From positions 1 to 49,673 of IMG/VR virus record IMGVR_UViG_2778261214_000022: DNA of 49,673 nucleotides; one strand, written 5' to 3'. The notes under the pieces were generated by a model. The model ran no database searches. It was given only the letters and a program-made list of their open reading frames with translations, and had not been told where the DNA came from. Position 1 is the stretch's first letter; each line of letters begins with the position of its first letter. Shown here in pieces: positions 19,400-19,774 of this stretch. The translations under genes were made by a program, and so were the position numbers. The stretch comes from a virus (Duplodnaviria > Heunggongvirae > Uroviricota > Caudoviricetes).

Positions 19400-19420
19400 G
19401 CCGCCATGAGCGGCTTTTTT
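19400..19420 (+). terminator. Intrinsic terminator after endolysin
   Basis: gccgc-catga-gcggc followed by TTTTTT. Confidence 0.55.
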
Positions 19421-19452
19421 ATTGCTCAAAAAACGAAAGAACGGAGGTACGT

Positions 19453-19734
19453 ATGTACGCACTGAAAAAAATCACGGTAACTAAAGATGGTCGTCAGGTT
19501 GAAGAAGTGCATGTTCTGGGGAATATGTATCGTCTGGAGTTCTATCCGCGTGACACTCATCTTGCAGCAAAAATTGAGTATTGCCTGGGCGGGGATATTC
19601 CATGTATTCCGGTAGAAAAAGAGGATGAGGCTTACATTACCACGCTGACCGGAGACACGGTGCGTTGTATCTGTCGCGGTGACAGTAAAGCCAGGAATGA
19701 AATAGCCAGATGCCGCACCCAAGGCAGTAAATAA
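19453..19734 (+). CDS. Hypothetical Cys-rich protein (moron candidate)
   Basis: 93 aa, GGAGG RBS 5 nt upstream, bracketed by terminators on both sides. Confidence 0.6.
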   Translation: MYALKKITVTKDGRQVEEVHVLGNMYRLEFYPRDTHLAAKIEYCLGGDIPCIPVEKEDEAYITTLTGDTVRCICRGDSKARNEIARCRTQGSK

Positions 19735-19743
19735 AAAACAAAA

Positions 19744-19774
19744 CCCCGGCTGCTGGAACAGTCCGGGGTTTTTA
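19744..19774 (+). terminator. Intrinsic terminator
   Basis: ccccgg ... ccgggg stem followed by TTTTT. Confidence 0.6.

Follow-up and report, generated by a model that had tools for sequence, protein, structure and literature searches.

The sequence analysed here (the window; 49,673 nt) represents a Rac-like lambdoid prophage with broad similarity to Rac-SA53 and pPE4, and the segment under study is 100% identical to a prophage of E. coli strain C5. Its late region contains, all on the plus strand, a Q homologue (16319–16981), two tRNA genes, two holins (Phage_holin_8 and Phage_holin_3_7), an M15 endolysin of the L-alanyl-D-glutamate peptidase type (18999–19382), a 93-aa open reading frame (ORF93), a 37-aa ORF with a C-terminal TM segment (19865–19978), a 60-aa lipoprotein ORF with the lipobox LVGC (19980–20162) that starts one base past the stop of the preceding ORF, further small genes, and the small terminase gene, which starts at 22936, 3.2 kb past ORF93. 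Since ORF93 lies between the M15 endolysin and the membrane-protein/lipoprotein pair, it resides inside the lysis cassette, and not between the lysis and packaging genes, where the original prediction had placed it.

Several further elements were observed in the window. At its left end, Rfam matches to SraC/RyeA and SdsR/RyeB, followed by RalA, the antitoxin RNA of RalR (463–607 and 2169–2347), are consistent with a Rac-like prophage and its chromosomal junction. The two tRNA genes (Thr-TGT and Gly-TCC; 17701–17852) are found between the Q homologue and the holins, with no toxin gene there; in Stx phages, this slot holds tRNAs plus stx. An alternative GTG start at 19805 would extend the 37-aa ORF to 57 aa, and the mature part of the lipoprotein amounts to about 29 aa with two further Cys residues. 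These two ORFs match PHROGs 4493 and 7528, both of which have no assigned function, and in an IMG/VR prophage (locus L053) the stop of a GH108 endolysin gene falls within the lipoprotein gene. The lipoprotein is probably lysis-associated, and the pair may be a spanin stand-in in phiP27/Rac-like phages; neither protein resembles a canonical i-spanin or o-spanin. In the tail-gene region, positions 41139–41224 of the minus strand match the Rfam family sRNA-Xcc1 above the gathering score (70.9 bits). A 479-aa gene right after the large terminase (~25364–26800) is annotated in RefSeq, in the identical E. coli C5 prophage, as "anti-CBASS protein Acb1 family protein", and, judging by its position, could be a portal-region protein.

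ORF93 is a genuine gene. It extends from an ATG to a TAA on the plus strand (19453–19734), and a Shine-Dalgarno sequence, GGAGG (19443–19447), is located 5 nt upstream of the ATG within a leader that is near-identical across the E. coli-type loci; the 93-aa ORF with a strong ribosome-binding site that had been proposed at this locus was therefore borne out. Comparison of 25 distinct 93-codon alleles (277 pairs) gave a median dN/dS of 0.13, in support of a true coding sequence. A longer version initiated at a TTG codon (19384; 116 aa) was ruled out, as both the conservation and the ribosome-binding site start at the ATG and the extension would span the hairpin described below, and a 191-aa ORF on the minus strand (19426–20001) was dismissed as an overlap artefact. 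The G–C content of ORF93 is 46.8%, that of the neighbouring lysis genes is 51–54%, and that of the whole window is 48.1%. Its product is predicted to be a soluble, neutral and hydrophilic protein (pI 7.6; GRAVY −0.48) with no hydrophobic stretch, and neither a signal peptide nor a TM segment, lipobox or muralytic domain was found by inspection of sequence features or by Pfam.

Based on profile searches, the entire protein (residues 1–93) matches positions 1–95 of 95 in PHROG 33497, a family without functional annotation, with an E-value of 2.8 × 10−54, whereas scans against Pfam, NCBIfam and PADLOC gave no match. The original statement that the protein belongs to no recognised family thus holds for the latter three resources but not for PHROG. 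Similarly, none of the 41 members of the ORF93 family had a match in Pfam. The homologues form 51 clusters at 90% identity, every one of which is annotated as hypothetical, and they originate from Escherichia, Salmonella, Edwardsiella, Hafnia, Xenorhabdus, Proteus and Providencia, as well as from a single Aeromonadaceae metagenome bin. A profile search of 1.84 billion representatives yielded just 24 hits, the true ones all being about 80–110 aa in length with the N-terminal sequence MYALK. ORF93 belongs to a small orphan family confined to prophages of Enterobacterales and the one Aeromonadaceae bin. A literature search, which included reports on the Stx2k phage and on LT-II prophages, found nothing on ORF93.

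AlphaFold2, run with the family alignment, produced a confident model (pLDDT 89) consisting of seven antiparallel strands arranged as a beta meander and a C-terminal helix; the shorter Proteus-type homologues stop ahead of the region of this helix. The homology and structure searches suggested along with the original prediction have been carried out and returned neither a functionally characterised homologue nor a significant structural neighbour. Hits to polyubiquitin and Big_12 were discarded as additive-repeat artefacts. A ubiquitin-like beta-grasp was likewise rejected, because only polyubiquitin chains score, by adding up weak repeats, with no single stretch passing, and because the model is a meander that lacks the grasp helix.

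The protein had been described as Cys-rich, with six Cys residues. It contains five (residues 44, 51, 72, 74 and 87), of which C74 alone is mostly kept in the family, yet replaced by Ser in several members. Family members have a median of one Cys, and three have none; therefore, the abundance of Cys is a trait of the Escherichia lineage and not of the family. A zinc-binding or disulfide role of these residues was ruled out, since no conserved set of Cys/His ligands is present in the family.

The endolysin stop codon (19382) is followed, 15 nt further on, by a terminator-like hairpin with a T-run on the plus strand (19397–19420). Its core stem (19400–19404 paired with 19410–19414; GCCGC-CATGA-GCGGC) is extended to 19397–19417 by G·U and A–U pairs, and a T6 tract (TTTTTTATT; 19415–19420) follows directly. 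Taken alone, this hairpin is only moderately stable and unexceptional (−12.8 kcal/mol; z = −1.4). Its reality is supported by comparison, as every one of the 69 distinct homologue loci has a hairpin with a T-run ending 24–42 nt before the ATG, and compensatory changes are seen among them. The upstream terminator of the original prediction is thus confirmed on comparative grounds and not by its folding energy. The usual form of the element is AAAGGTCRC-TTMG-GYGGCC-TTTTTTATT, and in 47 of the 69 distinct loci a further hairpin with a T-run is found just downstream of the homologue. Among 21 distinct versions of the hairpin, 92.6% of the cells are paired, with compensatory changes at three of the pairs (12 cells), a level reached in 0 of 500 shuffles. 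The U·G wobble that is kept in 18 of the 21 versions marks a structure formed by the plus-strand RNA. Rfam returned nothing at the ORF93 locus other than sub-threshold terminator-like hits.

In 978 kb of the collected loci, 46 copies of the hairpin motif immediately precede a homologue and 16 immediately follow one; elsewhere, 14 copies are found on the plus strand and four on the minus strand, and several of these 14 adjoin either homologues missed by the search pattern or neighbouring small cassettes. The explanation that all upstream hairpins are derived from the target site was dropped, as the canonical motif is specifically enriched beside ORF93 homologues. The hairpin of the window itself is backbone-derived and homologous to the post-endolysin hairpin of phage pPE4.

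Downstream of ORF93, a strong intrinsic terminator begins 10 nt past the stop codon, with a stem at 19744–19768 and T-runs reaching 19779 (CCCCGGCTG-CTGGAA-CAG(T)CCGGGG, then TTTTTAGTTTT). It is predicted to be considerably stable (−21.8 kcal/mol; z = −4.2), none of 200 shuffled sequences being as stable, and it may be bidirectional, given the A-tract ahead of it. In the otherwise collinear prophage ETEC-2264, the endolysin stop is joined straight to this terminator and to the highly conserved sequence beyond it. Thus, the insert comprises approximately positions 19383–19734, and the downstream terminator belongs to the backbone. A terminator had been predicted downstream of ORF93, and a strong one is indeed there (19744–19779), but it is the terminator of the endolysin gene in relatives that are free of the insert. 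In agreement with the comparison, the segment 19735–19800 occurs without ORF93 in many E. coli genomes.

The adjacent intergenic stretch (19735–19865) displays almost 100% identity among the window, phiSTEC1575-Stx2k and ETEC-2264, with the flanking coding sequences being only about 88–90% identical. A promoter-like site is present there on the minus strand (TGGACA-18-TATACT, from 19862 to 19833; 10 of 12 matches), facing the bidirectional terminator. The antisense RNA predicted from this site would be about 85 nt long (19826 to 19740), with a folding energy of −28.9 kcal/mol (z = −4.0). Rfam gave only sub-threshold hits for this candidate, for instance to sar RNA (E-value, 0.17), and the conservation of the stretch may instead reflect the leader and ribosome-binding site of the next gene.

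The insert of ~350 bp (19383–19734) is missing, with clean junctions, from ETEC-2264, and its slot is variable in other relatives. After the endolysin gene, a KilA-N gene is found in pPE4, other small ORFs in phiP27, and the LT-IIa genes in Rac-SA53 (L112, 11150–12290). In E. coli E21845/O/A (L010, 2658–4250), LT-II-like A and B genes follow the endolysin gene and precede an ORF93 pseudogene, in which the start is lost and an internal stop is present. The full-length ORF93 segment was found in 79 of 5426 complete E. coli genomes, with the terminator segment alone in many more, and in only one of the 50,697 GenBank phage records, that of phiSTEC1575-Stx2k. ORF93 is therefore optional cargo of the moron-like kind, a single-gene accessory insert; the corresponding claim of the original prediction stands, and it agrees with the different site that the gene occupies in Proteus and Xenorhabdus.

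In every one of about 100 loci, the homologue has the orientation of the late genes and is located between Q and the terminase genes. Two arrangements were observed. In the Escherichia/Edwardsiella/Aeromonadaceae type, the order is holin(s), endolysin, ORF93, lipoprotein or Rz, and small terminase; in the Proteus/Providencia/Xenorhabdus type, it is Q, ORF93, holin, endolysin and Rz. The endolysins beside the homologues are of the M15, GH108, lysozyme and unassigned types, the holins belong to several families, and the small terminases include Nu1, Terminase_4 and others. Such a diversity of unrelated lysis and packaging partners argues against a dedicated role in either process.

In Xenorhabdus bovienii (L006, 4773–5558), a Tad2-like gene of the anti-Thoeris family lies between Q and the ORF93 homologue, so that in at least one lineage the slot holds counter-defence cargo. 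In prophages of Proteus and Providencia (L020, 4368–4540; L002, 6248–6420; L026, 4780–4930), the same type of hairpin precedes other small ORFs as well, among them a 44-aa ORF that starts with MKNLFINL, and a small ORF with a Cys-rich C-terminus (...CYWCCRECHTS) is located directly upstream of the ORF93 hairpin. From one phage to another, these units are arranged in a different order, suggesting that the interval from Q to the holin gene holds a short array of mini-cassettes set off by hairpins. The Proteus-type hairpin lies about 50 nt past the Q stop, with promoter-like and −10-like elements ahead of it; judging from this layout, it may, tentatively, be tR' itself.

The junctions of the insert point to the way in which it has moved. 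At E. coli-type loci, the stretch running from the T-run up to the ATG is near-identical, and the hairpin, together with everything upstream of it, differs; the similarity between the window and pPE4 ends at 19417, exactly at the start of the T-run. In L053 (4889–5000), the junction lies within the lipoprotein gene, whose signal-peptide coding sequence mimics the hairpin and T6 (GGGCACTGGTAGCGATACTGGTGCC TTTTTT) and whose product is truncated after the signal peptide. In L107, an identical hairpin is found on both sides of the homologue. These cases suggest recombination at hairpin/T-run sequences, and every surviving arrangement rebuilds a terminator ahead of ORF93. The cassette would thus pass between phages by recombination at such terminator sequences, a route proposed from the junctions.

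No sigma-70-like site was found on the plus strand near ORF93. The best promoter match within 200 nt upstream of the gene has 7 of 12 positions, less than the median of 8 obtained from 248 windows of this size in the same sequence, and the ~30 nt from the upstream T-run to the ATG leave no room for a promoter in between. In the region 17000–23000, 17 terminator-like sites were identified, an approximately threefold excess over the 5.6 ± 2.6 expected from shuffled sequences. Three of them, at 18154, 18308 and 19397, are situated between Q and ORF93, the first two between the tRNA genes and the first holin. In lambdoid phages, Q enables RNA polymerase that has initiated at PR' to read through the intrinsic terminators further on, and without Q, late transcription stops at the first terminator. 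The layout in the window is that expected of a Q-dependent late gene, ORF93 being downstream of Q and co-oriented with it, with intrinsic terminators in between.

The combination of a conserved hairpin, a lack of promoter-like sequence and a late-operon position bears directly on the original view of ORF93 as an independently expressed gene, which is not supported, given the absence of a promoter-like site, the ~30 nt gap after the T-run, and the upstream terminator being a conserved part of the arrangement. With a terminator immediately upstream and no promoter, ORF93 is probably turned off in the lysogen and comes on late, along with the lysis genes. Expression in the lysogen could still arise from a weak or non-sigma-70 promoter or from read-through of the terminator, and the conserved boundary hairpins could be kept merely as terminators of the upstream unit and not as a gate on ORF93. 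The best explanation of the locus, which we regard as probable on balance, if by a small measure, is a terminator-gated, promoterless late cargo gene of a Rac-like prophage with an accessory, host-directed role. According to this explanation, a single-gene cassette consisting of the T-run, a short leader with a strong ribosome-binding site and the 93-aa ORF would have been inserted into a Q-dependent late operon, between the endolysin gene and its own terminator, and it would be read only by Q-modified polymerase after induction, along with the lysis genes.

The role of the product is the weakest step of this explanation. The protein would be a small, soluble, cytoplasmic beta-protein that depends on neither Cys residues nor metal ligands and is not bound to one type of holin, endolysin, spanin or terminase. 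ORF93 is dispensable, independent of the type of lysis and packaging genes, and found in slots common to late-released toxins, KilA-N and the Tad2-like gene. With low confidence, we consider the product to be a host-directed accessory binder, and not a lysis enzyme or a lysogenic-conversion factor: a dispensable, late-acting factor that would bind a component of the host or of a competitor (host takeover or counter-defence). Judging from the invariable upstream terminator, the product may be harmful if made in the lysogen.

Two more conventional readings account for part of these observations. ORF93 could be a classical moron, as originally proposed, with its own promoter and expression from the repressed prophage, conferring a fitness trait on the lysogen (exclusion, stress tolerance or virulence), and with the terminators insulating it from the late operon. 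A single optional gene between terminators, near-confined to prophages, in slots that house the LT-II and Stx conversion genes in relatives, and with a G–C content slightly under that of the neighbouring lysis genes, fits such a reading. It is nevertheless unlikely, as no promoter-like site is present and the distance from the T-run to the ATG (24–42 nt in all 69 loci) leaves no room for one past the terminator; in addition, the product lacks the signal peptide or TM segment of most surface-acting conversion morons, and the gene has decayed to a pseudogene in the E21845/O/A prophage. The constant position of ORF93 within or beside the lysis cassette, always in the same orientation and, in the window, between the endolysin and the probable lysis lipoprotein, would rather suggest a lysis accessory or regulator, that is, a cytoplasmic protein co-expressed with the lysis genes that tunes the timing of lysis or the activity of the endolysin or holin. 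This is improbable too, because the homologues are accompanied by several holin families and by endolysins of no fewer than four unrelated types, and the gene order varies (before the holin, in the gap between holin and endolysin, after the endolysin, or after the lipoprotein). Moreover, ORF93 is missing from near-identical lysis cassettes, such as those of ETEC-2264, phiP27 and pPE4, and the same slots house clearly non-lysis cargo, namely toxins, KilA-N and Tad2-like genes. None of the features by which phage lysis proteins are recognised (a TM segment, a lipobox, a muralytic domain, or fixed pairing with lysis genes) was found for ORF93.

The remaining readings place the hairpin at the centre. 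ORF93 may be part of a selfish mobile cassette, with the hairpins acting as recombination sites and the protein serving the spread or maintenance of the cassette and not the phage. The motif accompanies ORF93 across genera, many Proteus-type loci have a hairpin on either side of the ORF (identical ones in L107), junctions fall at hairpin/T-run sequences, including the mimic inside a coding sequence, and adjacent small ORFs bear the same leader hairpin in shuffled order. However, the product is an 80–93-aa beta protein with no recombinase or nuclease features, the flanking hairpins are mostly unlike in sequence, and the pattern is accounted for by homologous or short-homology recombination between similar terminators combined with selection for non-disruptive junctions, which makes this reading very unlikely. 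A bolder proposal, which we consider doubtful, is that the hairpin and T-run form a portable recombination and gating element of promoterless mini-cassettes in the region from Q to the terminase of enterobacterial prophages. Each unit, composed of a hairpin, a short leader and a small ORF, would shuffle within this region, and ORF93 would encode a late effector with a new fold, such as a binder involved in counter-defence or host takeover, that is toxic enough to confine all surviving insertions to sites behind a terminator.

If terminator-gated late cargo is the correct explanation, not every terminator-bracketed single gene of a prophage is a lysogenic-conversion moron; some would be promoterless cargo expressed only through late antitermination, like stx and LT-II in the same slots of related phages. 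A small, dispensable orphan family whose confidently predicted fold has no known structural neighbour shows the usual profile of host-directed or counter-defence factors yet to be discovered. The tight coupling of the ORF to a covarying hairpin, together with junctions at hairpin/T-run sequences, provides a concrete case of terminators possibly acting as joints of lambdoid mosaicism. Current views are not overturned by these results, and their practical value hinges on a phenotype.

Compared with known systems, ORF93 shares features with three types of accessory genes. The morons of lambdoid phages, such as bor and lom of lambda, were reportedly described by Juhala, Hendrix and colleagues in 2000 for HK97 and HK022, and they are defined by having their own promoter and by expression from the prophage. 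Like them, ORF93 is an extra single gene present in some collinear genomes, located between functional modules and followed right away by an intrinsic terminator; unlike them, it has no detectable promoter, and a terminator is found directly ahead of it in every homologue locus. The original interpretation was accordingly half right: optional cargo is supported, whereas independent expression and the definition by Cys residues are not.

Another parallel is the cargo of late operons, exemplified by stx, which lies downstream of Q, PR' and tR', and by eltII, which follows the endolysin gene in Rac-SA53. ORF93 occupies the same two slots as the Stx and LT-II genes (between Q and the holin, and after the endolysin) in the same lineages (phiP27, phiSTEC1575-Stx2k and the relatives of Rac-SA53), is co-oriented with the late genes, and would be expected to be expressed mainly on induction via Q antitermination. 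Its product differs in being small and cytoplasmic, with no signal peptide and no similarity to toxins. In behaviour, though not in membership, ORF93 also resembles the gene cassettes of integrons, which are promoterless single ORFs with an imperfect-palindrome hairpin, arranged as units in short shuffled arrays and reliant on an external promoter. In ORF93, however, the hairpin is located 5' of the ORF and is terminator-like with a T-run, and neither an integrase nor attI/attC core sites are present; in contrast to integron cassettes, it probably moves by general recombination. Thus, ORF93 appears to be fairly ordinary phage cargo, with the conserved hairpin–leader–ORF arrangement as its sole unusual aspect.
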